Assembly: GCA_019752595.1 (NCBI GenBank)
Contig: JAIELV010000001.1
Location: forward strand, 553,209 to 617,208
Source of the DNA: Patescibacteria group bacterium
GTDB taxonomy: Bacteria > Patescibacteriota > Minisyncoccia > Phycocordibacterales > Phycocordibacteraceae
DNA length: 64,000 nt
Direction: 5' to 3'
In this document: in pieces, positions 1,476-30,813 of the stretch
How the letters are laid out: the number at the start of each line of letters is the position of its first letter
Position numbering within the stretch: the first letter of the stretch is position 1
Program-made: the position numbers and the translations under genes
Notes under the pieces: generated by a model
Told to the model about the DNA's origin: nothing
Seen by the model: only the letters and a program-made list of their open reading frames with translations
Database searches by the model: none

Positions 1476-4400
1476 ATGTTGAACAAAATCATATCTTTTT
1501 CGCTGAAACATCAGTGGAGAGTGGTTGCGGTATTCATCGCCATCAGTGGGCTCGGCGTGTGGAGTTTTCTCACGATGAAGGTGGATGTATTGCCCGACAT
1601 CAACAAGCCGACAGTCGCTGTGTTTACCGAAGCTGAGGGGCTTGCCCCCGAAGAAGTCGAACGACTCGTTCTTGCTCCAGTTGAGAACGCAGTTGCAGGA
1701 GCACCTGGTGTTACGCGTGTGCGAGGAACAGCATCATTCGGGCTCGCAATTGTGCAAGCAGAATTTGATTGGGGTTCGGACATCTATCGCAACCGACAAA
1801 TAATTCAAGAGCGAATTTCTCGTCTTGATCTTCCTCAGAACGTTCGACCTGTACTTGGTCCCGTGAGTTCCATCATGGGAGAAATTATGTGGGTTGGGCT
1901 TACTTCTGAAGAATCCACACTGGATGGTAAAGAATTGCGCACACTAGCAGATTGGACCGTTCGACCAGCCCTTCTTCGTGTTCCGGGCGTCAGCGATATC
2001 ATCGTGCTTGGCGGTGATGTCAAAGAGTGGCAAGTCAATCTAAATCCGGAAGCAATGCGCCGCTATGACCTTACTATTGCCGACGTAGAAGAAAAACTAT
2101 CATCAGTGCTTACGAATAAAAGTGGCGGACTCTTGGTGCAGGGAGGAAAAGAATATCCTCTGCGCATATTGGTTGCACCACAAGATATTGCTGAAATAGA
2201 AGAAGTTGGGATTACCACTTGGAATGGCCGCGGCGTACGGTTGGCTGACATAGGCACTGTCGTTGCGGGCGTAAGCCCTGTTCGGGGAGGTGCCACAATA
2301 GATGGGAAACCAGGAGTCATCCTGCGCATAGCCAAACAACCGGAAGCAGAAACTTTGGCAGTTACCGCTGCCGTTGATGAGGCACTAGAAAGCATTCGAC
2401 AATCCCTACCAACGGGTGTCACTCTCAAGAACGATCTTTTCCGGCAAGAGTGGTTCATCGACGCTGGCCTCAACAACGTGTATCGGGCCCTGCTTGAGGG
2501 TATCGTCGTTGTCGCTATCATTCTCGCGTTATTCCTCATGCATCGGAGGGTTACGTTCATCACGCTCATATCTATTCCGCTCAGTATCGTGGTAACCGCG
2601 ATTGTATTCAAACTCCTCGGATTTTCCGTGAACGTAATGACTTTGGGTGGTATTGCGGTTGCAGTGGGTGAGCTGGTGGACAACGCCATAGTAGGTGTTG
2701 AAAACGTGTTTAGAAGGTTGCGAGAATGGAAAGCTTCAGGCTCATCAGAACCAATACACACAGTAGTGTTTGAAGGTACACGAGAAGTATTGAACTCAAT
2801 CGTGATTGCGACCATTCTCGTCATGATTGTATTCCTGCCAGTGTTCTTTATCCCCGGAGTAGAAGGGCGACTCCTCGCATCTCTTGGGAGTGCCTACCTC
2901 ATAGCACTTTTGTCATCGCTCGTAGTATCAGTCACCATAATCCCAGTTTTGTGTGCACTCCTTCTCTCGCCAAAACACCTTACTGGACATGAGAGCGATA
3001 CGAGGTTCGTGCGCTTCGTGAAAACCAAGATGGCCCCTGCAATTATGTGGGGTATTGAACATGTGAAGCCTCTGATGATTGCCACAATAATTGGCATTGT
3101 CATCACTGCTGGTATGTATGTTTTTGCAGGCAAAGAAGGCATTCCGCCCTTCAATGAAGGGTCGGCGACCATTTCTGTGATTCTCCCAGTGGGGACAGAT
3201 CTTGGTACTTCAAACGCGTTTGCTTCCCGAGTGGAAAAAGAGATAGGAAAAATAGAAGGGGTTGTGCGTGTGGGACATATTACTGGCCGAGCCGGAGCCG
3301 ACCCTCATGATAGCGGAGCAAACACGAGCGAGATTCAAGTTACTTTTGAACAGGGGCTTGAGGGTGAACGAGAACGACTGTTTGCGGAAATACAAAAGGT
3401 AGTTGAACGATTCCCGGCGGCAGACTTCTCTATCGGGCAGCCAATAACTCACCGCGTTGAAGAGTTGCTATCTGGTATACGAGCGCCTATCGTCATTAAA
3501 GTATATGGTGATGATCTTTCGGGTCTTAAACAGACGGCAGAGAGAATTCGCGCGGAGCTTGCAAAGCAAGAGGGGGTAAAAAATCCTCAAGTTCAAAAAG
3601 AGGTATTGCTCCCCGAGTTACGCATCTACCCTGACCGCAACCGACTCGCTGATTACGGCCTCTCAAGCGGACAAGTTGCTGAAGAGCTCGAAGAGGGCTT
3701 GCTCGGCGTTCGTATAGGGCAAGTACAGGAAGGCTCGGCGCGAACAGCTGTAGTGCTACGATACGACCCTTCTTGGCGTGGTAATAGCGACGGCATACGA
3801 GATATATCTCTTCCGTTTGAGAACGTGGAGGCTCTCGGCAATGCAGCAGAGTTGCGCCTCGATGCTGGACGTAATAAATTCAGTCACGAAGGAGGCAAGC
3901 GCGTGCTTGTTGTGAGTGCAAACTACGATGGTGGAGATATCGTGGGTGCGGTGGAAGCGGTCAAACAAACGATGGACAAAGAAAAATTGCCATCGGGGCA
4001 GTCCATCTCGTACGAAGGCACCTATAAAAGTCAGAAAGAAAATAGCCAGCGTCTTGGCATATTGTTTGCCGTGGGACTTATTCTAATCTTGTGGGTGTTG
4101 TACCAGACATTCAAATCAATTCCGATTGCATTACAGATAATGCTCAACATTCCATCAGCCATATTCGGCGGCATGGTCGCCGTGTGGCTTACTGGTGGGG
4201 AGATAAACCTTGCGCACCTAGTTGGCTTTATCTCACTTGCGGGAATTGTTTCAAGAAATGGAATCATTCTCATCAGTCATACGCTCGACTTGGTCGGAGA
4301 GGAAAATGGTAACGGTGTATTAAAAGAGGTGGTTCTCAAAGCTACGCTCGATCGTGTTGTGCCGGTGCTCATGACATCCTTAGTCACCGCACTTGCACTT

Positions 4401-7806: not shown

Positions 7807-8562
7807 CTACGCGTCCCGATCTTCTTCATCGTTTTTTCCCCGCAACAGAATCTCCCTTACTGCACTCAGGCGCTCATCGAGCACCGTGATGACCGCACCA
7901 AAGAAATTTGGTCTCGACGCCCAATCACTTTTTGATGAATCAAGCATGAGGTCGCACAATTGCGAAAGCGTGTGGCGAGAAACGATAGCTTGGTGTAATG
8001 CCATCTCTGCATGATTAGGCTGAATTCCGCATTCATCCATTATGTACACCGTTATCACGTCAGTGTTGTCGCGCGCGCGTAATACTCGCTGATGGTTAGA
8101 CATAGTGAACAGTGCATCTGAAGTCGCTCGCTCTTTCTCTGTCCCAGAGGTGGTTCGGTGCATGGTATCGATACGATGCGAGAGTTCGGCAATAACCGCA
8201 AGATAGTACGAAGGCTTTTCCTTCCACATGCTCTGCGTACTACTGGTGAGTGATTCGCAAAGCGCGCTCAGAGGTGTTTCTTTCAAACCCTGGAGACGTA
8301 TACCTATATTCCGTTCATTTCTGGAAAATCCCTGGATTCTGGAAATCATCTTTTCAATTGTTCCCGCTTCAGTCACCGCACGGGCAACAAGGTCATGCTG
8401 CGTTTTATAGAAAGTAGCGTCATCATTTTCCGATTCAGATACTGCTATTTCTGGCGTTGAAGGCACACCGCGCGAATCCATACGTTGCGCTGTCACGTTT
8501 GGCTGTCTGATAGTTTCGCGGGTGAAAAGACTCACCACTTTTCCGTCCTTTCCTTCTGCCAT
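7807..8562 (-). CDS. Hypothetical protein, 251 aa
   Basis: Long ORF, no recognisable motifs. Divergent from the next gene across a palindrome-containing spacer. Confidence 0.5.
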   Translation of the reverse strand: MAEGKDGKVVSLFTRETIRQPNVTAQRMDSRGVPSTPEIAVSESENDDATFYKTQHDLVARAVTEAGTIEKMISRIQGFSRNERNIGIRLQGLKETPLSALCESLTSSTQSMWKEKPSYYLAVIAELSHRIDTMHRTTSGTEKERATSDALFTMSNHQRVLRARDNTDVITVYIMDECGIQPNHAEMALHQAIVSRHTLSQLCDLMLDSSKSDWASRPNFFGAVITVLDERLSAVREILLRGKNDEEDRDA

Positions 8563-8675
8563 AGTGGAGATACTGTACTCCTCAAAAAAGAAAAAGTGAA
8601 ATCAGTCAATGCATAACAACAACGTTCAAAATTTCTCCACCTTTCTCTCATTCTCCCTCATCTCTCCGTGATAAC

Positions 8676-8695
8676 TGATATGATATATCATATCA
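8676..8695. promoter_or_regulatory. 20-bp perfect palindrome TGATATGATATATCATATCA in a divergent promoter region
   Basis: Self-complementary 20-mer verified by reverse complement. Lies 35 nt upstream of the 8730 start and in the 5' region of the divergent 7807..8562 gene. Confidence 0.4.
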
Positions 8696-8729
8696 TTGAT
8701 TTTTAGTAAAAAAGTGGTAAAAAGCGTTC

Positions 8730-9449
8730 ATGGCAGTCGCTGAAACGCTGAATCTTAATGGGGTGCTACAGGGCATACGCGGACGCAGGGCGTTTGCACG
8801 AAGAACGCGGGAGACGAGGAGTTCAAATGAAAAACCTTCACTGGTCGCACTTCACGAAGCGGCGCACGTGTTTGTTGCGCTAGCAACAGGCACAGCTGAC
8901 CCAAAGAGCGCAAACATCATTCCCCACGGAATGGTAGAGGGCACCACGTGGCTTTCAAATTTCAGTGCCGTGGTCGCCGCTGCGGGCGAAGCAATTGGGG
9001 ATCACGCAGGCGCAGGTGGTGACAGACAAATTGCTGCGAACGAAGGGGTAAATTGGAAACGAGCTGTCGAAGGCGCGAAAGCAGCGATAAGCGGAAATAT
9101 GCACGTGATTTACGCCCTCGCTTCAGCGCTCCAGAAATGGAAGGAGCTCGGGAGCGGAGATTTGCGCGACGTCTACAGCGAAGCCAAGAACGGCGCGGAA
9201 GTGATGATTACTTTTACTGATGAGACTGGCGATACGCAAACCGAAACAACACGAACCAAGCCAGGGACTCATGAGGTCAAAGTCCCCGCGTGGCTTTTCG
9301 TTGCTTTGATGGAAGCGGCGGGTGAAGAAGCGGAAGATTTGAAAAAAGAAGGGGTTACTGTTGGTGGATTTCCGAAAAGAAATACGCGCGGTGTGAAAGT
9401 AGATGTAGTGACCGAAAAAGATTTGGCCGACCTGCAGAGAGACGTTTAA
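8730..9449 (+). CDS. Stand-alone FtsH-like (peptidase M41-type) metalloprotease domain protein, with no AAA ATPase module
   Basis: LHEAAHVFVALATGTADP...IIPHG..G.T mirrors the FtsH protease-domain block [28 protein letters not shown] in the ftsH encoded in this window. HExxH zinc motif present. Only 239 aa. Confidence 0.5.
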   Translation: MAVAETLNLNGVLQGIRGRRAFARRTRETRSSNEKPSLVALHEAAHVFVALATGTADPKSANIIPHGMVEGTTWLSNFSAVVAAAGEAIGDHAGAGGDRQIAANEGVNWKRAVEGAKAAISGNMHVIYALASALQKWKELGSGDLRDVYSEAKNGAEVMITFTDETGDTQTETTRTKPGTHEVKVPAWLFVALMEAAGEEAEDLKKEGVTVGGFPKRNTRGVKVDVVTEKDLADLQRDV

Positions 9450-9497
9450 ACAGCGAGGTCGACCTAGTGCGCGACATTAAAACTTACTCAAGTGAGG

Positions 9498-10301
9498 TTA
9501 CTTCGCTTTTTTAGTTTGGGCGATCACTCCCATAGTGAGAATCATAACGTCCCCTGCGATGTCTCGCTCTTGCGCAAAACGCTCAATACTTCGAGTCCTG
9601 ATTTTGATCTGTGCCTTCTTCCATACGGATTCGATATCTCCTGCAAGACGTTTAGCAGCTTCTTCTGGTCTATCTGCCATGATGTCTGGTGACCGTTCTT
9701 GAAGTCGATCTCCGCGAATGTGTGGCAGTGCATACACATACAAGACAAGAGCGTGCTTAAAAAAGTCAGCTGGAACACCCGACAGTTCAGACTCCTCTGA
9801 AAAGAAATCAAGATTCGCTGAGTAAATAGGGATGCTTCCTTGGGGAGGCTTTTCGAAACCGTACCATTCAACACGTCCACCCTGTTCTTTCTGATCCATC
9901 TTTCTGCGCCATCGAATTCCCTTGCCGACTTTCTCTTTGAATTCGTCGAGGTTTGCAGCGAAATCGTTTTCTACGAGGTTATCATTCGCGCGTTGAGGGC
10001 GCGACACAATCCGTTTCGGTATGACGAAATGTGCATCCGCAAGTTCAGGATCATTGATATACGTTCGCGCGACATCAACCAAGGAACTCTTTCCAGCCCC
10101 TGAAGGACCTACGACTACAATTGCATCTATACGCTCTAAGGCTGCAAGTTTTTCAGGAGAATAATCTAAAAGAGAGTGATCCGTCTCTCCTTCAACGTGA
10201 CGCGCCATGTACCACATAGGCTTTATAAGGGCCGCACCTTCTGCTCCGCGCTTAAAGCCTTCTGCTCCGCGCTCTAAAATCGAACCTAGGGAGAGATCCA
10301 T
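9498..10301 (-). CDS. P-loop kinase, PhnN-like (ribose-1,5-bisphosphate phosphokinase / guanylate-kinase fold)
   Basis: Walker A VVVGPSGAGKSSL. Downstream block HFVIPKRIVSRPQRANDNLVENDFAANLDEF resembles PhnN [23 protein letters not shown]. Confidence 0.5.
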   Translation of the reverse strand: MDLSLGSILERGAEGFKRGAEGAALIKPMWYMARHVEGETDHSLLDYSPEKLAALERIDAIVVVGPSGAGKSSLVDVARTYINDPELADAHFVIPKRIVSRPQRANDNLVENDFAANLDEFKEKVGKGIRWRRKMDQKEQGGRVEWYGFEKPPQGSIPIYSANLDFFSEESELSGVPADFFKHALVLYVYALPHIRGDRLQERSPDIMADRPEEAAKRLAGDIESVWKKAQIKIRTRSIERFAQERDIAGDVMILTMGVIAQTKKAK

Positions 10302-10315
10302 AAAATTTTTTGTAG

Positions 10316-10389
10316 TCCGCCCTCTTGGACTCGAACCAAGGACCCCAGAGGTATAAGCTCTGTGCTCTAACCAACTGAGCTAAGGGCGG
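10316..10389 (-). tRNA. tRNA with anticodon TAT (tRNA-Ile, UAU), 74 nt, CCA not encoded
   Basis: CCGCCCT acceptor, GCTC-AGTTGGTTA-GAGC D-arm, CAGAG-CTTATAC-CTCTG anticodon arm, CTTGG-TTCGAGT-CCAAG T-arm, discriminator A. Anticodon read directly from the reverse complement. Confidence 0.8.
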
Positions 10390-10446
10390 ATGGTAATTAC
10401 TATATATCCTTAAAACCGAGACGCAAAGAAGAACCTACACGGTTCA

Positions 10447-10851
10447 CTAACTCCTCACAAGCGCCTCTATTTTATTTTTCACCATATCGCGTACGGTGCG
10501 GTGGAATTCAATCGGGGTTCGCACAGCGTCAGGAACATCAGCCCACCGTTCTAGTTTTGATGAATTCTCTACGTATGCAGGCATCGGGTAGTCAGTGATA
10601 ACAATCACCTTGTCCGCACGTTCCACCATCTCTTTAGTAATTACTTTTCTTATTTTCTTAGACACATCAATACCAACTTCTTTCATCACCTCGACAACGA
10701 GTTCGGGTACTGACGGGTCATCCCCTTTTACGGAATTCGCCAAATCAACTCCCGCGCTCGTCGCGTCTTCTGTTCCTGTCATTGAGTTATAAAATCCTTC
10801 CGCCATCTGGCTTCGTCCTGCGTTCGCACGACAAATAAAAAGAACCTTCAT
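10447..10851 (-). CDS. Low-molecular-weight phosphotyrosine phosphatase family protein / thioredoxin-type arsenate reductase (ArsC-like)
   Basis: N-terminal VLFICRANAGRSQMAE is the CX5R(S) P-loop of the LMWP/ArsC family. Size 134 aa. Confidence 0.75.
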   Translation of the reverse strand: MKVLFICRANAGRSQMAEGFYNSMTGTEDATSAGVDLANSVKGDDPSVPELVVEVMKEVGIDVSKKIRKVITKEMVERADKVIVITDYPMPAYVENSSKLERWADVPDAVRTPIEFHRTVRDMVKNKIEALVRS

Positions 10852-11092: not shown

Positions 11093-13054
11093 TCAAGCCT
11101 GATGCTCTATGTCTTTTTTCACCTTCGGCGTAATGCCGTTTGCAATCAAAATCTTTTCAAATTCGTCTCGCTCAAGGGTTTCAACTTCCATCAATCGGGC
11201 AGCAATGGCATCGAGAAGTTTTCGTTCTTTCGTAATAATGTCGTGTGCCTTTTTGTATGAGCCGTCGATAATTTTCTTCACTTCGGCGTCAATCTTTGCG
11301 GAAATTTCATCCGAGTATTCTTTGTCGGATACACCACGACCGAAGAGCGTTCTACCGCCCTCACCTTCAAGTGCCATCGGGCCAAGCTCATCAGACATAC
11401 CGTACTTCGTCACCATGTCACGCGCCAAAGCCGAAAGAACTTGAAGATCGTTTGACGGGCCCGTGGTCAAATCCTTAAAGACCTCTTTCTCCGCAATGTA
11501 ACCGCCGAGTGATACTGCAATGTCGTCGAGGAATTCATTCTTCGATTGCATCTTTGTATCTTCCAAAGGAAGTTTCAGTGTGTATCCAGCAGCGCGACCG
11601 CGGGAAATGATTGAGATTTTATGTACAGGATCAGCGTACGGAAGGATGGACGCAACAATCGCGTGGCCCGCTTCGTGATACGCGGTGATTTCTTTTTCTT
11701 TTCTGTTCAACACATGACTCTTCCTTTCGGGACCGAGCATCACTTTCTCAATCGAGCGGATGAGGTCAAACTGCGCGACTGTCTTTCTGCTTTCGCGCGC
11801 AGCAAGAATTGCGCCTTCGTTCATGAGCGAGTACAAATCGGCACCTGAAAATCCTGGCGTGCGCTCTGCAATAACAAGAAGGTTTACATCTTCTGCCAAC
11901 GGTTTTTTACGTGCGTGCACTTTCAGTATCGCTTCGCGGTCGCTCCTGTCAGGCAAATCAATCATCACGCGTCTGTCGAAACGGCCTGGGCGCAAAAGTG
12001 CGGGGTCCAAAACATCAGGACGGTTTGTTGCCGCCATGACAATTACTTTCTCGTTCGGTTCAAAGCCGTCCATCTCAACCAAAATCTGATTCAACGTTTG
12101 TTCGCGCTCATCATTACCACCACCGACACCTGTTCCGCGTACGCGGCCTACGGCATCAATTTCGTCCACGAATATAATGGCTGGCGCCGCGTGCTTAGCC
12201 ATATGGAAAAGGTCGCGCACGCGGCTTGCACCAACACCAACAAACATTTCGACGAACTCAGAACCTGAAATAGAGAAGAACGGCACACCTGCTTCGCCCG
12301 CAACCGCGCGGCCCAAGAGTGTCTTCCCTGTTCCTGGAGCACCCATGAGAAGTACGCCTTTCGGAATGCGTGCGCCAATGTCGAGGAATTTTTTAGGATT
12401 TTTGAGGAAGTCGACGATTTCAGTCAGCTCTTCTTTTGCTTCTTTTGCACCCGCAACATCGGCAAATGTGATTCTCTGTGTTGCGTCTCTTGGATCCACC
12501 ATGCGAGCTTTTGATTGCCCGAAGGTAAATGCTTGCATACCGCCCTGCTTTACTTGCTTCGACAAAAACCAAATAAAGACACCGATCAAAATAAGTGGCA
12601 AGAGAATTGGCGCGAGGTTGAAGAACCAGTATTTAAATCCTGTCTCATCCTTCACTTCTATTTTTACTTTCGCCAAAGCTTCAGGTGTGATGCCGTAGTA
12701 CGAAAGCGTTTCAGACAGTGCGACGTCCGTTTCTTTTTTACTCTTCTTTTTTACATCTTCCGCGTACGTAGCGGTCAGTGTATTTCCTTCAACCAAAACT
12801 TCCTGCACTAATCCTGATTGAATATCGTTTGCAAGAACGGAAAGCGCAATGTCTTCTGGTTTCTGCTGAGGTGCAAAGAAAAATGAGTACAGCGTGTAGA
12901 GAATTAGTACCGCGAGAAAAACGCTGGTCATGTTGCCCCACCAATCTCCTTTTGGCGGTGTCGGCATTTTCTTAAAAAAACCTTCCAATTCGGTTTTTTT
13001 CTTGTGCTGTTTTGATTTTTCGGTCATTTTTTCTGGTGCTTTGTTTTTGGGCAT
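11093..13054 (-). CDS. ftsH: ATP-dependent zinc metalloprotease FtsH
   Basis: Two N-terminal TM segments. AAA module [23 protein letters not shown], second region of homology. M41 protease HEAGHAIV. Confidence 0.95.
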
Positions 13055-13159
13055 GAAAATGGTTGTCGCGGTATTATATCTTAGAAGCCTTTACGCGCGA
13101 AGCGCGTTAGGGCTTCTTAGATGCCGAAGAGTATACTTCGGCGCTGACTAAATTATGTT

Positions 13160-13609
13160 ATGGGCGCACTTGTCGAAAATAAAAAAGCAAGACTCGAATA
13201 CGAAATCCTGGAATCATTCGAAGCAGGAATGCAGCTTTTCGGCTACGAAGTGAAGGCGCTTCGCATGGGGAGAGCATCCCTCGTCGGTTCGCGCGTCGTG
13301 GTGCGTGCAGGTGAAGCGTTTCTCGTTGGCGCCACTATCTCTCCGTACCAAGAAAAAAACACACCCAAAACATATGACGCTGAACGCACACGCCGCTTAC
13401 TGCTCTCGAAGAAAGAGATTGCTGATTTAGGAGATACTGAGGGGAAAAAAGGGTTGACAATTATACCTATCATGGTGTATAATAAGAGGAACAGGCTGAA
13501 ACTCCAGGTCGCTATCGTTCGTCATAAGAAAAAACATGACAAACGTGAGACACTCAAAGACCGCGACACCAAACGGATTATCGACCGCACCTTGAAAAAT
13601 CAATATTAG
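13160..13609 (+). CDS. smpB: SsrA-binding protein SmpB
   Basis: Conserved SmpB core (NKKARLEYEILESFEAGMQLFGYEVKALR...) and basic C-terminal tail. Followed by tmRNA. Confidence 0.9.
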   Translation: MGALVENKKARLEYEILESFEAGMQLFGYEVKALRMGRASLVGSRVVVRAGEAFLVGATISPYQEKNTPKTYDAERTRRLLLSKKEIADLGDTEGKKGLTIIPIMVYNKRNRLKLQVAIVRHKKKHDKRETLKDRDTKRIIDRTLKNQY

Positions 13610-13772
13610 GACCCATTCCCGAATCTGCTTTCGAAAAGCGAGATGTCGGTTTTTCGCAGCGAGAATGCTCGGCGCAGGCTGAAGCGTACCTTAGGTTACG
13701 CTGAAAACGAGCCGTTAGCGTTCGTAGCAGAAAAACAACATTGAGCCGAAATGAGATTCGGGAATGGGTCCT
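13608..13772. repeat. ~165-bp element bounded by perfect 18-bp inverted repeats AGGACCCATTCCCGAATC / GATTCGGGAATGGGTCCT
   Basis: Left arm 13608..13625 overlaps the smpB stop. Right arm 13755..13772. Arms are exact reverse complements enclosing ~129 nt with internal short hairpins. Confidence 0.4.
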
Positions 13773-13868
13773 CTCACTGTTAGAAAGACAGTCCTTCCCC
13801 GCACACTAATTTTTGAATAGCACCTTGTGCGTTTCGGCAAGCCGAAACAATCCAAAATTTAGTGTGCG

Positions 13869-14236
13869 GGGGATGATTTGATTCGACAGTGGGTCACGCT
13901 ATATACATGCGAAACGGTGAATGTTGGAGAACACCTAAAATCTCGAACAACAAACGTGTAAGAACGTCTGTACCGTCCTACTCCCTCGCGGAGATGGATC
14001 TCGCTTACGCTAACGCCTAAGCGGCGCCAAACTTTCAACGCCTTATAGAAAGTTCTTGGTGTCATAACATAAGGCTCTAAGAAATCGATTGCTCACCGAT
14101 TTCTCAAACTTACGAGCTCGACTGTGCGCGCTTTCGTTCGTTTCTTAACGCACCGTCTAAAACCCAAAAGCGAACTAGGTTCCGTAGATTGTACTAGCAA
14201 CACTCATTGGACGGGGTTTCAACACCCCCATCTCCA
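13869..14236 (+). ncRNA. ssrA: tmRNA (ssrA), standard one-piece, ~368 nt
   Basis: 5' GGGGATGATTTGATTCGACAGTGGG and 3' TTGGACGGGGTTTCAACACCCCCATCTCCA match the tRNA-like domain consensus. Acceptor GGGGATG pairs with CATCTCC. Sits directly downstream of smpB. A possible tag frame ends ...AEMDLAYANA-TAA at 14018..14020, but this is uncertain. Confidence 0.8.
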
Positions 14237-14240
14237 CAGA

Positions 14241-19871: not shown

Positions 19872-22793
19872 TTACGTGCCCTGCTCTTTTTGCGCCTCGC
19901 GCATCTGGTTGTACTTTATGTTGATTTCTTCTTCGACGGCATCGCGTGCGCGCCCAAACCGCTGATACGACATCTGCTTCAGTGCTTCCATGTTCATCGG
20001 ATCACCATTTTGGAATGCAATCGTTTCTATAGAAAATGGTGAAACTGGCTTGCCGCCAGCCAAGAGCTTCACGTACGCGTGAAAGTTATCGAGCTTAAAG
20101 AAATCGGTCGTTTCAAACACTGGCTGATACTGCTTTGCTAAAAATTCCGCATCTTCTGTACCGACACGGAACGTTGCCATCGTACCCACGTTACCGAATA
20201 CTGATTCTTTAATTTCTTTCGACAGCTGAGAGATGTACTGGTGCGCAATAGTGAGCGAAAGTCTGAATTTTCTGGCTTCAGAAAGAATTGTGGCAATGGT
20301 GTTTGTGGTTACGTTCTGGAACTCGTCGATATAGAGGTAGAAGTTCGGCGGATTGGTGTGCAGATAATCCGTACGCGCAAGCGCGGTCATCATGATTTTA
20401 CCGACAATCACAAGCCCGAGGAGGTTCGCGTTCAAATCTCCCAAACGGCCTTTCGAAAGGTTCACCAAAAGGATTTTCTTGTTATCCATGATGTCCTTGA
20501 AATTGAAAGCGCTCCTCTGCTGACCGACAATCGGGCGCATGATTTCGTTCGCGATAAAGATGTCGAATTTTGACGTAATGTATGGCACTACGTTTCGAAG
20601 GTCTCCCTCCCCACGTACATTTTCCGCAATATCCTCCCAGAAGTGATTCACTACAGAGTTTCTTGAACGGGAAAGTTTCAGTGCGCGGAAATTGTCGTCC
20701 GCCAAAACACGTGAAATATCCATAAGTGTAGAGCCCGTTTCGGGATCTTCAAGCACCAAAAGCGTGGCGTTTCGGAAGTATTGTTCGAATATCGGACCGA
20801 ATGCCTCAGGCACATCGCCGTACAGCTTCTTGAATATCTTGAACATCTCGTCCACCACGAATGTTTTCTGCTCAGGAAAACGGGGATCATACTCCAGCAT
20901 GTTCAAGCCCATCGGGCGCGCGGTGTATGCGGGATCAAAATAAATCACATCGTCGTAACGTTCCTTCGGAATGCGCGAAAGAATTTCCTGCACGTCAACA
21001 CCGTGCGGGTCTATAAAACACACGCCAGCCCCGCGCTCGATGTCCTGCATAATCATGTGTTTCAGGAAGTTCGTCTTACCCGTACCAGTCTGTCCGATGG
21101 TGTACATGTGACGGAGGCGATCTTCGTCGCCGAAGTGCACTAATGTTTCGATGTTCGAATAACGGTTTCTACCAATCGTAATACCGACTTGCGGCAATCC
21201 TGGTGGCGCAGGTGCAAGTTTTGCACTCGAAGTTTTTGCTTCGCGTGATGCGGTTCCGCCTGCAATGGTCCAGTGAAACATTGTCGAAAGCTCTGAAAGG
21301 TTCATCGGCATCAATGTGCTTCCCTCCACCATCGGTGTTGGTACTTTTTTCGTAAACTCCCAAATCAACTGCTCAATAACGGATTCGTGCGCATCACGGT
21401 CAAACAAACGGAAAATAAATTCGCGCATCAGTTTTCGTTTCGCACTCTTTCCATGCGGCGAATGAAACTTCAAACGATTTCCCTTTGCGTCTTCGTACTG
21501 ACCGAATGTTCCTTCAATTTCCGCAATAATTGCTTTTGCACGCTCTTTAGTACGCGCAGACGCCACAACGCGAATGTTGACGCCGACAATCACGCTCTTT
21601 ATTTTTTTATTGACCGCTTCAACCGTCAGCGTGTCCACGTGCTTATCATGCCCGCCACCACCACCTCCGCCATGCCCACCACCTGAAGAAGACTTCATCA
21701 TGTCTTTGGCCTCTTTTGCCGCCCCTACGAGAAACTGACGCCACAGGGGTTCTGGCTGTTCATACATGTGGTCAAGGAAAATGTACCCATGGCTTTTTTT
21801 CCCTTCATTCAAATCGTGAAGCACTTTGAGCATGCGTTTTGTGTGGTAATCTCCTGCGCCAGCAACAGAAATTTGTATCGATGCACCTTCGCCCTCCTGT
21901 GCGATTTTTGAAAGAGACGCGAGCGTGATGTTTAACGGGTCGTACGTAAAATCTTCAATAGTCTTTAGTGGTAGTGGTGCGGGACGTTTGTATTCTGCGT
22001 AAGCGATTTCAGTTGCGCCAAATTGGTTAAACGGATTGTAGTCATCTTTCTTTTCCGCCACGCGCGCGCGAGGGAAGATAGCAAAAATCTGCTTTTCAAA
22101 AAAGTCTCGTTTTTTGCGCGGAACCGCGAGGTAAAAAATCGCAAATTCGTTTGTATGCGACACCGCGATCTCCATGGTGAAGTGCTCCTTATGAAGCACC
22201 TTCCTGCGTTGTAAATCTTTGAGGAAATACACATCAGGAATAGAAACGAGCGGGATAACCGCCTGATAGAACTGCTCCATCTGCGTGATGATGTCTTTCA
22301 AACTCCCTCCTGCTTTTCCTGCGCCAGACTCAGGCACTGCAACCTCCAAAAGCACAAAATCAAGCGCTCTTGCGATTGGGTCGTGTGGGTCAAGGCCTGG
22401 GATAGCGTGCCCTTCTTTTTTGTACTGCACCAACAATCGGTGGAAATCGTCCTCGAGGTGCGGGTTGTCTATTTCTTCAAGCGCCTTCAGGGCCGCGGAG
22501 AAACCTTTCTCGCGAAGAATGCCAAGGAGGTGCTCCATGTCTTTGTCGTTCGCGTCAGGCGTGAGTTCCAAAATGATTCCCTTATCGCCTGGTTGGTGAT
22601 TTTGAGGCGCCGTAGAATCATCTGAAGCAGGCACCACAGGCGCTTCAACAGGCGGTCGAGGTTCATTACGGTACCCGTATCCACCCCCACCAGAACGGGC
22701 ATTTTCACGCATCTTTGCCATCTGCCTCTCAGGAGAAAGTTTTGCGTTTGCAGTCGAATCAGGACCTTTTAATTGCCCAAATGCCATACGCAT
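19872..22793 (-). CDS. Large FtsK/HerA-superfamily ATPase of the VirD4/TraD/TrwB coupling-protein type (973 aa). Low-complexity Pro-rich N-terminus and internal Gly/His-rich tract GGGHGGGGGGGHDKH.
   Basis: Walker A TIGQTGTGKTNF. CFIDPHG and YFDP blocks. Walker B-like YLYIDEFQ. C-terminal SLTIAHQY...L typical of the TraD/TraG C-terminal region. No N-terminal TM helices. Confidence 0.6.
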   Translation of the reverse strand: MRMAFGQLKGPDSTANAKLSPERQMAKMRENARSGGGGYGYRNEPRPPVEAPVVPASDDSTAPQNHQPGDKGIILELTPDANDKDMEHLLGILREKGFSAALKALEEIDNPHLEDDFHRLLVQYKKEGHAIPGLDPHDPIARALDFVLLEVAVPESGAGKAGGSLKDIITQMEQFYQAVIPLVSIPDVYFLKDLQRRKVLHKEHFTMEIAVSHTNEFAIFYLAVPRKKRDFFEKQIFAIFPRARVAEKKDDYNPFNQFGATEIAYAEYKRPAPLPLKTIEDFTYDPLNITLASLSKIAQEGEGASIQISVAGAGDYHTKRMLKVLHDLNEGKKSHGYIFLDHMYEQPEPLWRQFLVGAAKEAKDMMKSSSGGGHGGGGGGGHDKHVDTLTVEAVNKKIKSVIVGVNIRVVASARTKERAKAIIAEIEGTFGQYEDAKGNRLKFHSPHGKSAKRKLMREFIFRLFDRDAHESVIEQLIWEFTKKVPTPMVEGSTLMPMNLSELSTMFHWTIAGGTASREAKTSSAKLAPAPPGLPQVGITIGRNRYSNIETLVHFGDEDRLRHMYTIGQTGTGKTNFLKHMIMQDIERGAGVCFIDPHGVDVQEILSRIPKERYDDVIYFDPAYTARPMGLNMLEYDPRFPEQKTFVVDEMFKIFKKLYGDVPEAFGPIFEQYFRNATLLVLEDPETGSTLMDISRVLADDNFRALKLSRSRNSVVNHFWEDIAENVRGEGDLRNVVPYITSKFDIFIANEIMRPIVGQQRSAFNFKDIMDNKKILLVNLSKGRLGDLNANLLGLVIVGKIMMTALARTDYLHTNPPNFYLYIDEFQNVTTNTIATILSEARKFRLSLTIAHQYISQLSKEIKESVFGNVGTMATFRVGTEDAEFLAKQYQPVFETTDFFKLDNFHAYVKLLAGGKPVSPFSIETIAFQNGDPMNMEALKQMSYQRFGRARDAVEEEINIKYNQMREAQKEQGT

Positions 22794-29729: not shown

Positions 29730-30179
29730 CTAGGCAGTCACTGTACCACCCTTCGCTTCAATCGCTGATTTCGCTGATGCAGAAACAACGACGCCTTCAA
29801 CTTTCAATTTCTTCGTCAGTTCTCCGTTGCCCAAAATCTTCACAGAAGGCACTTTGCCACCACTTCTCTTCACGAGGCGTGCGCGCATAAGGGTTGTCAA
29901 AGAAACAACGTCGCCATCCTTAAATGTTTTTGAAAGAAGATCGAGATTGATTGCGCGCTGAGCTCCTTTCGGGATTGCGGTGTCTGCGCGGTTCTTGCCG
30001 TGTCCGCGGAGTTTCGGAATTTTCTTGATGATATCGCGCCATTCAGGACGTCGCTTGTTACCAGCGCGAGCTTTCTGACCCTTGGTACCACGACCTGCAG
30101 TTTTACCGCGCTTACCTCCGCGACCAACGCGAGTTTTCTTTTCAATTCTTCCTGATTTTCCGATTGAGTGAAGTTCCAT
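29730..30179 (-). CDS. rplO: 50S ribosomal protein L15
   Basis: Gly/Arg/Lys-rich N-terminus GRGGKRGKTAGRGTKGQKAR typical of uL15. Confidence 0.9.
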   Translation of the reverse strand: MELHSIGKSGRIEKKTRVGRGGKRGKTAGRGTKGQKARAGNKRRPEWRDIIKKIPKLRGHGKNRADTAIPKGAQRAINLDLLSKTFKDGDVVSLTTLMRARLVKRSGGKVPSVKILGNGELTKKLKVEGVVVSASAKSAIEAKGGTVTA

Positions 30180-30204
30180 GTTACTTGTAGTGAGTTTTAC
30201 GAAT

Positions 30205-30813
30205 CTATTTCAATTTTGAAAGCGCCTTAATAGTCGCGCGTGCAATGTTCAACTTATTCTTTGACGGTGAGTGAATCTTTGCAGTGACGTCTTTTACGCC
30301 AGCAAGCTCCAACACCATTTTAACTGCTGAACCTGCAACGATACCTCGAAGTGGCGCAGGGCGAATTTCAACGATACCTGAAGATTCCTTTGCCATAACG
30401 TCGTGAGGGATCGAAAGAGTTTTCGTCGTCTTCACCGTAATCATGTTTTTCTTCGCGTCCCGTAGCGCTTTCTCGATTGAACCTGCGGTGTCGCCTCCCT
30501 TGCCGATACCAACGCCCACGCGACCTTTGCGGTCACCGATAACGATAGCTGCTGAGAAACTGAAGCGACGACCTCCTGCGGTCACACGAGCAACACGGCG
30601 CAAGAGAAGTGTTTTCTGATCGAATTCAGAGCGAGGGCGGTCTTCACGCTTTCCGCCTGAACGACGATTTCCTCCACGGCTTCCGCCACCTCCCTGAGGG
30701 CCACGGCGTCCGCGAGGACCTCCGCGCGTATCGCGAGGAGCACCTGCAACAGGAGCTACCGCTTCAGGAGTAGCTTCGACAATCGGTTCTGCTGTGTTTT
30801 GTTCATCCATCAT
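30205..30813 (-). CDS. rpsE: 30S ribosomal protein S5, with a Gly/Arg-rich N-terminal extension. No rpmD (L30) gene lies between it and rplO.
   Basis: S5 dsRBD core LLRRVARVTAGGRRFSFSAAIVIGDRKGRVGVGIGKG and C-terminal domain. The 25-nt gap to rplO leaves no room for L30. Confidence 0.9.
   Translation of the reverse strand: MMDEQNTAEPIVEATPEAVAPVAGAPRDTRGGPRGRRGPQGGGGSRGGNRRSGGKREDRPRSEFDQKTLLLRRVARVTAGGRRFSFSAAIVIGDRKGRVGVGIGKGGDTAGSIEKALRDAKKNMITVKTTKTLSIPHDVMAKESSGIVEIRPAPLRGIVAGSAVKMVLELAGVKDVTAKIHSPSKNKLNIARATIKALSKLK

Follow-up and report, generated by a model that had tools for sequence, protein, structure and literature searches.

A tRNA-Ile gene with the anticodon UAU downstream of ftsH in a Patescibacteria bacterium, and its probable part in TilS-independent reading of AUA

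In Mycoplasma mobile the tRNA-Ile2(UAU) has an unmodified U34, and the absence of both tilS and tRNA-Ile(CAT), the adaptation of IleRS (Arg865) and discrimination against AUG at the level of the ribosome have all been shown experimentally (PMC3575796). IleRS enzymes that accept U34 in other bacteria have either Arg or Lys in place of E. coli Trp905 or are of the eukaryote type, and tRNA-Ile(UAU) has been recorded in nine species from three clades (PMC3575796). The same survey lists Lactobacillus casei, L. plantarum, Cyanothece PCC 7424 and Ferrimonas as possessing both tRNA-Ile(TAT) and tilS, and its authors, Taniguchi et al., proposed a pre-TilS state in early life (PMC3575796). Deletion of tilS in Bacillus subtilis is suppressed by a G34U change in tRNA-Ile1, ie UAU without modification is enough to read AUA, and AUG is read only weakly (Kohrer 2014, PMC3919564). 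Reviews and a 2026 preprint treat tRNA-Ile(UAU) as a rare exception in bacteria. In an incomplete search of the literature we found no discussion of UAU decoding, or of a lack of TilS, in the CPR/Patescibacteria.

The window analysed here is a stretch of 64 kb, and the reading given below is drawn from that part of a genome of roughly 0.83 Mb. It contains a tRNA-Ile gene of 74 nt at 10316..10389 on the minus strand, with TAT at nucleotides 34-36, ie the anticodon UAU, identified by ARAGORN, by the Rfam model RF00005 and by orthologues in the related loci L003-L006 and L001. ARAGORN called two tRNAs in the 64-kb window, one being tRNA-Ile with the anticodon (tat) at position 35 (10315-10389, minus strand); there was no CAT tRNA among its calls. 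RF00005 aligned to 10316-10389 (minus strand) over the full model (1-71/71) with a score of 68.1 bits (E=1e-12; the gathering score is 29 bits) and with a posterior probability of '*' at all positions. The 5' part of the RNA reads CCGCCCU-UA-GCUC-AGUUGGUUA-GAGC-A-CAGAG-CUUAUAC-CUCUG and the 3' part GGGUC-CUUGG-UUCGAGU-CCAAG-AGGGCGG-A. The stems are of 7+4+5+5 pairs, all Watson-Crick, and U33, A37, G18G19, the T54-psi55-C56 positions and the discriminator A73 are present. CCA is not encoded; CTACA directly follows A73. An initial annotation of this DNA had described a minus-strand cloverleaf with the anticodon loop CTTATAC. That description is borne out by ARAGORN, the RF00005 score and the paired stems, and the placing of TAT at 34-36 by both predictors and the sequence itself, ARAGORN returning the same anticodon and fold as had been claimed. 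The single-sequence MFE fold was not the cloverleaf, and its energy was below that of 200/200 shuffles (z=-3.1); a non-cloverleaf MFE structure is usual for tRNAs and is therefore no mark against the call.

The identity set of E. coli tRNA-Ile comprises A73, A37, C4-G69 and U12-A23. All of these, together with an NAU anticodon, occur in the window tRNA. Position 34 encodes T, and C34, the substrate of TilS in canonical tRNA-Ile2, is absent. Neither a second copy nor orphan halves of the gene were found in a search across the window, where it is single-copy.

The window resembles CPR genomes in its gene content: many ORFs match no Pfam family, and comEC, smpB, a tmRNA gene and a gene like that for a T4SS coupling protein are present. 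Its FtsH is 100% identical to a protein of a 'Patescibacteria group bacterium', and further top matches were to proteins named Paceibacterota, Parcubacteria or Kaiserbacteria. In the ribosomal operon uS5 (30205-30813) is separated by 25 bp from uL15 (29730-30179), which is followed by SecY, adenylate kinase and Map, and there is no uL30 gene between uS5 and uL15 (window 29730-30813). A missing uL30 is reported as a CPR trait (PMC9297842). The GC content of the window is 47-49%. As judged from its genes, the host of the tRNA is a Patescibacteria (CPR, Paceibacteria-like) bacterium.

The upstream neighbour of the tRNA is ftsH (11093..13054, minus strand), identified by Pfam, homologues and its linkage in relatives. 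Between the two lies a gene for a low-molecular-weight phosphotyrosine phosphatase (10447..10851, minus strand; PF01451, 1.3e-12). It is separated from the tRNA by a terminator-like hairpin, GAACC-GTGTA-GGTTC with a T-rich tail (10431..10445, minus strand; a consensus match only), and by a block, AGGATATATAGT, containing a -10-like TATAGT (10399..10410, minus strand), 9 nt before the tRNA 5' end. The block has the same letters in L003 and also occurs upstream of the 5' half of the host tRNA in L001. It is possibly the promoter of tRNA-Ile(UAU), a candidate put forward on this conservation; a consensus promoter scan gave no full sigma-70 site near the tRNA. The phosphatase gene is a variable insert, its place being taken by a 57-aa ORF in L003-L006, and the flanks of the tRNA are a variable spot (window 7807-10851 compared with L003:11993-15388). 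In L003, whose FtsH is 98% identical, ORFs of 236 aa and 166 aa follow the tRNA; the window has an extra ORF of 251 aa (7807-8562). No recombinase was found near the window tRNA by Pfam analysis of the neighbouring ORFs. Upstream of ftsH, and divergent from it, are smpB (13160-13609, plus strand) and a full-length tmRNA gene (13869-14239, plus strand; 72.8 bits). The order T4SS-like gene, ndk, RNase J-like gene, infC, tmRNA/smpB and ftsH is syntenic in the window, L001 and L003; in the gene tables of the latter two, infC also has the L20 and L35 genes as neighbours. Downstream of the tRNA, the ORF at 9498-10301 encodes a 267-aa protein without assigned function that is 81% identical in L003. 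Two copies of a direct repeat, GCGCGGAGCAGAAGG, lie 22 nt from each other within this ORF (window 10239-10275, minus strand) and encode the peptide RGAEG twice near the N-terminus of the protein.

A tRNA-Ile(tat) also lies on the downstream side of ftsH in L003-L006, whose FtsH is 98% identical, and in L001, where the identity is 81%; in L003-L006 both the tRNA sequence and the 40-nt upstream block are the same as in the window. A further 80 metagenome loci were chosen solely by an FtsH 63-82% identical to that of the window and, since FtsH was the only basis of choice, the sample is unbiased towards the tRNA. The tRNA-Ile(tat) was found downstream of ftsH in 51 of the 80, in 33 of the 37 with a full 5-kb flank, and upstream in none; the median distance from ftsH was 1050 bp, and 34 were on the same strand as ftsH. 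Among the matches listed from the species-genome scan described below, ftsH adjoins the tRNA in 41 of 120 loci, usually 12-600 bp upstream and on the same strand.

Where copies of the tRNA differ in a stem, the change is compensatory: pair 7-66, U-A in the window, is C-G in the L001 host copy, and anticodon-stem pairs 27-43 and 28-42 are changed on both sides. All four Watson-Crick forms occur at pair 29-41 among 126 homologues, and at pair 1-72 there are 85 with G-C, 28 with C-G, 10 with G-U and three with A-U. The 17 pairs of the acceptor, anticodon and T stems are all intact in 113 of the 126. A73 is present in every homologue and C4-G69 in 91; C32, U33 and A37 are also found in all 126, a figure partly fixed by the search pattern, and the anticodon loop is CUUAUAA or CUUAUAC in 124. 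The tRNA-Ile(UAU) is a canonical tRNA under purifying selection, fixed beside ftsH across the lineage. A pseudo-tRNA was considered and rejected because of the score (68.1 bits), the synteny and the covariation.

Insertions into trnI(UAU) were observed in some relatives; none of the L001 or L048 kind occurs in the window. In L001 (GCA_040384205.1, JAWVGZ010000004.1; 12199-21817) a 9.5-kb insert splits the host trnI(UAU) at the anticodon into a 5' half (12199-12234) and a 3' half (21780-21817). Starting 23 nt into the insert is a complete tRNA-Ile(UAU) (12264-12338, 74 bits) with another acceptor stem. The insert also encodes a 530-aa large serine recombinase (12297-13889, minus strand), an HTH protein, a 1270-aa PIN-TPR-GreABC protein and an 818-aa unknown protein. 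By its gene content it looks like a mobile element that uses the anticodon loop as attB and brings a spare tRNA. Nested tRNAs in L048 (1176-1402) and L154 (7574-7821) consist of a 5' half, a spacer, an intact trnI(UAU), a second spacer and a 3' half; the inserts, of about 165-180 nt, follow A37 with TATA at both junctions, and the acceptor stem of the intact copy differs from that of the orphan halves. In L088 (3639-3785) a trnI(UAU) 5' half is followed by an intact copy. Possibly these short inserts are related to the L001 element and have decayed or are non-autonomous. Since the insertions always restore a complete tRNA, we infer that the cell cannot do without tRNA-Ile(UAU). ORFs like the L001 recombinase abut or overlap tmRNA genes in L180 (1303-3273, E=5e-155) and L193 (1493-3460, 1e-104), and, to judge by these positions, genes for small RNAs (tmRNA, tRNA-Ile) seem to be the targets of this recombinase family. 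A comparison of the L001 recombinase with viral contigs gave one match, 35% identical, and no tRNA there.

To gauge the breadth of tRNA-Ile(UAU), 185,579 species, each represented by one genome, were scanned with a pattern whose only fixed elements are the D arm, YTTATA and the T loop. At least 120 matches were obtained, and ARAGORN called tRNA-Ile(tat) at 120/120 of those listed. Among these listed matches 78 of the 120 are labelled as CPR, under about 20 lineage names, ie Kaiser-, Jorgensen-, Taylor-, Nomura-, Adler-, Vogel-, Uhr-, Falkow-, Kuenen-, Morani-, Shapiro-, Levy-, Woese-, Dojka- and Peribacteria, WWE3, Saccharibacteria, Paceibacterota, Minisyncoccia and Parcubacteria. A further 17 are an unnamed 'bacterium', several with a CPR-type FtsH beside the tRNA, and 12 are 'Uncultured Gammaproteobacteria', a label that is doubtful because two of them share an odd CAT tRNA with CPR loci. 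The remaining listed matches are DPANN or other archaea (5), Ignavibacteria (3), Dormibacterota (2), Chloroflexota (1), Planctomycetota (1) and Lachnospiraceae (1). The tally is biased by the fixed D arm of the pattern and covers only the matches listed, so it is no census. The tRNA-Ile(UAU) is common across the CPR and the norm in this organism's lineage. The initial annotation had called a UAU isoacceptor rare and confined to scattered lineages; this matches the literature, but does not hold in this organism's lineage, the tRNA occurring under about 20 CPR names and in 33/37 loci. The window tRNA is thus ordinary for its lineage and of a kind already known from Mycoplasma mobile-type decoding. 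What seems to be under-reported is the scale, a whole radiation compared with nine species in three clades. In viral contigs of IMG/VR at least 120 pattern matches to tRNA-Ile(TAT) were also obtained (loci L210-L289; pattern match only), and by these matches it is a common member of the tRNA sets of phages or giant viruses.

The use of AUA was examined in 53 ORFs of the window. ATA accounts for 187 of 16,309 codons, or 11.5 per 1000, and for 17.5% of the Ile codons. Its share of the Ile codons is 0/27 in EF-Tu, 1/59 in EF-G and 27/90 in an AcrB-like pump; avoidance in the elongation factors together with frequent use in the pump is what is usually seen for codons served by a minor tRNA. When the window ATA codons were aligned with L003, 33 were unchanged; of 25 that had changed, 19 were ATC or ATT, six were Val, Leu or Thr, and none was ATG. 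Comparison in the other direction, and with L001, gave a like result. On these alignments AUA is a used codon with the meaning Ile, and the codon statistics suggested with the initial annotation bear out its regular use. Reassignment of AUA to Met was rejected because there are no AUA/AUG exchanges in the L003 and L001 alignments.

In many bacteria the gene order is tilS-hpt-ftsH. In the window a divergent smpB, not tilS, lies upstream of ftsH, and no TilS was found among the main ORFs of the window as a whole. Ten ORFs upstream of ftsH in related loci were likewise not TilS; they include those for a patatin, a protein with an S1 domain, EF-P and a class-I W/Y-type aminoacyl-tRNA synthetase (PF00579), as well as unknowns. 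Searches with E. coli TilS (phmmer) and for the SGGxDS PP-loop motif gave nothing in about 0.8 Mb of genome loci or in 0.69 Mb of FtsH-selected loci, both searches being run with no CPR TilS as a positive control. The position upstream of ftsH lacks tilS in the 64 FtsH-selected loci with at least 1.5 kb of upstream sequence, and in the genome loci. The CPR bacterium Southlakia epibionticum differs in having tilS (SEML1_0730) directly upstream of ftsH (SEML1_0729) (PMC10633639). Its annotation contains one tRNA-Ile and three 'tRNA-Met' (CAT) genes clustered just upstream of tilS-ftsH. In the Dojkabacteria-/Woesebacteria-like loci L059, L113 and L101, two CAT tRNAs and one TAT tRNA stand upstream of ftsH, and there is no tilS. 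Going by annotation only, a tilS state and a TAT-tRNA state look like two alternatives at one locus.

Published counts per protein family, which are CPR-wide rather than specific to this sub-lineage and include many incomplete MAGs, place TilS (K04075, PF01171) in 123 CPR and 866 non-CPR genomes, ie as a depleted family, with no members in DPANN or other archaea (Meheust 2019, Suppl. Data 1, PMC6744442). In the same table FtsZ (2037 CPR and 943 non-CPR), EF-Ts (1983 and 1046) and GyrB (1985 and 1057) are equally distributed (PMC6744442). TilS is thus depleted roughly 15-fold in the CPR relative to universal families. Among the other tRNA modification enzymes MnmG (5 CPR genomes of roughly 2000, and 897 non-CPR) and TruA (5 and 958) are depleted, and MnmA (1495 and 948), TsaD (1942 and 995) and TsaE (1528 and 949) are equally distributed (PMC6744442). 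The initial annotation had taken a UAU isoacceptor usually to signal loss or absence of tilS and a special modification of the anticodon. The former stands at the level of the lineage only, in the TilS counts and the empty place upstream of ftsH; the latter is unsupported, U34 being unmodified in M. mobile, the only natural case to have been studied, and MnmG almost missing from the CPR.

The CAT tRNAs found near the TAT tRNA were considered as tRNA-Ile2(CAU) and rejected; they look initiator-like or elongator-Met-like and are 56-72% identical to the TAT tRNA. An unusual CAT tRNA of 70-72 nt (TGCGGGGTAGTGTACGG..CCCCGCAA), with U1-A72 and a very short, atypical D arm, was seen at L010:98-168, L017:5794-5865, L029:1153-1223, L093:5873-5942 and L101:4723-4793, and also in MAGs labelled 'uncultured Gammaproteobacteria'. 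A normal elongator-type CAT tRNA is always nearby, and the unusual one may therefore serve some CPR lineages as a reduced form of the initiator. IleRS was sought with the E. coli enzyme (phmmer) and was not found in the window or the lineage loci; apart from weaker class-I synthetase matches, the one candidate was in an 'archaeon' MAG (L052:863-3858). There a tRNA-Ile(UAU) (3785-3858, minus strand) stands 10 bp upstream of an ORF of 970 aa, which, with a match to E. coli IleRS of 1.8e-105, is probably the synthetase gene paired with its own tRNA.

Taken with these results, we think it likely that the window tRNA is a functional minor tRNA-Ile that reads AUA independently of TilS. The UAU anticodon would pair directly with AUA through U34-A, and the tRNA would be the sole decoder of that codon, standing in for a TilS/tRNA-Ile2(CAU, lysidine) system that was lost or never possessed. 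IleRS would charge it by way of A73, C4-G69, U12-A23, A37 and the anticodon, and would have to accept U34. A37 is probably t6A, since TsaD and TsaE are retained in the CPR. As MnmG is nearly absent from the CPR, U34 would be without an xm5 group and is probably unmodified, as in M. mobile. Misreading of AUG could be kept low because an unmodified U34 pairs weakly with G and because tRNA-Met competes for the codon; features of the ribosome may contribute as well. The state of U34, the charging and the discrimination against AUG are proposed here by analogy with the M. mobile and B. subtilis precedents and from the CPR gene table.

A different reading has tilS and a tRNA-Ile2(CAU) outside the window, which is about 8% of the source genome, with the UAU tRNA as a second reader of AUA. 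Coexistence of this kind is documented, and redundancy was proposed, for L. casei and L. plantarum (PMC3575796), and 123 CPR genomes, together with Southlakia, do have a TilS family member. We nevertheless regard redundancy here as unlikely, as the place upstream of ftsH is without tilS in the window and in all the related loci looked at (the 64 FtsH-selected loci and the genome loci) and the family is so strongly depleted in the CPR. Judged from this comparison of loci, coexistence with tilS in the present genome looks unlikely. Southlakia, which has tilS, has no second annotated tRNA-Ile, and this suggests that the two systems alternate rather than coexist. It is very improbable that the gene is an accessory or decaying copy, ie a mobile-element or phage tRNA, or a pseudo-tRNA, outside the core decoding set. 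Element-borne copies do occur in L001, L048, L154 and L088, tRNA-Ile(TAT) genes are abundant in viral contigs, and the genes flanking the tRNA differ between the window and L003. However, the acceptor stem in the window is of the host type (CCGCCC..), like that of the split host halves in L001 and L154, and the cloverleaf is perfect, at 68 bits, with no orphan halves or recombinase nearby. Its place after ftsH and its upstream block are conserved, and the linkage to ftsH holds in 33/37 loci of the unbiased sample.

The last alternative leaves the role of the tRNA unchanged and differs over its specificity, reading of A only being enforced by a modified U34, through 2-thiolation by MnmA, pseudouridylation or a new modification. 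MnmA is retained in 1495 CPR genomes, an engineered haloarchaeal tRNA-Ile with U34 becomes modified, and eukaryotes use tRNA-Ile(psi-A-psi), likewise a U34-type decoder of AUA, in which both U's are modified to pseudouridine. Known MnmA substrates have U35, and the A35 of tRNA-Ile(UAU) counts against a modified U34. So do the unmodified U34 of the natural M. mobile case and the selected B. subtilis case and the near absence of MnmG and TruA from the CPR. Taniguchi et al. left a modified UAU open for M. suis (PMC3575796). We consider a modified U34 doubtful, with perhaps one chance in several of being correct, and prefer the TilS-independent reading with an unmodified U34.

Compared with M. mobile, the organism shares a genomic UAU anticodon for AUA, a reduced genome and a lineage without, or poor in, tilS, and probably also A37 as t6A and the lack of xm5U machinery; a TAT tRNA-Ile gene and the use of AUA as Ile were both found in the window. 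It differs in that M. mobile is one Tenericutes species studied by experiment, whereas here the trait is superphylum-wide, linked to ftsH and known from sequence alone. Bifidobacterium and Neorickettsia, which are tilS-less, also have tRNA-Ile(UAU) in place of the TilS system, together with a horizontally acquired IleRS of the eukaryote type. The B. subtilis suppressor likewise uses UAU for AUA and demonstrates that the switch is a one-step change, but it is a laboratory mutant of the major tRNA-Ile1, whereas the present tRNA is a natural, conserved minor species. L. casei, L. plantarum, Cyanothece PCC 7424 and Ferrimonas have the UAU isoacceptor too, but have kept tilS. With canonical tRNA-Ile2(CAU, lysidine) the window tRNA has in common the codon, the minor role, A73, C4-G69, C5-G68 and the GCUC/GAGC D stem; unlike it, it encodes T34 and not C34, so lysidine is neither needed nor possible. 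The archaeal tRNA-Ile(UAU) of Nanoarchaeum, Korarchaeum and DPANN is also a U34-type AUA decoder in ultra-small symbionts, but belongs to another domain, in which the missing enzyme is TiaS (agmatidine), not TilS.

The broadest form of the proposal is that AUA is read across the Patescibacteria, which account for much of the diversity of bacteria, by an indispensable U34 tRNA-Ile without lysidine, arising from a single ancient swap at the ftsH locus or from retention of a pre-TilS state, and to this we would give about an even chance. The anchoring of trnI(UAU) at ftsH, where other bacteria, and the few CPR with TilS such as Southlakia, keep tilS, suggests such a swap or retention. TilS is regarded as essential, as close to universal in bacteria and as a possible target for antibiotics, and tilS is a bac120 marker. 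If the CPR generally use UAU without TilS, the enzyme would not be near-universal in bacteria, the 'exception' would comprise thousands of species, and tilS would be systematically missing from CPR genomes for a biological reason. In annotation, tRNA-Ile(UAU) would be expected in CPR MAGs rather than treated as odd. Cultivable CPR co-cultures would then offer a natural system in which to study how U34 avoids AUG in a split codon box.
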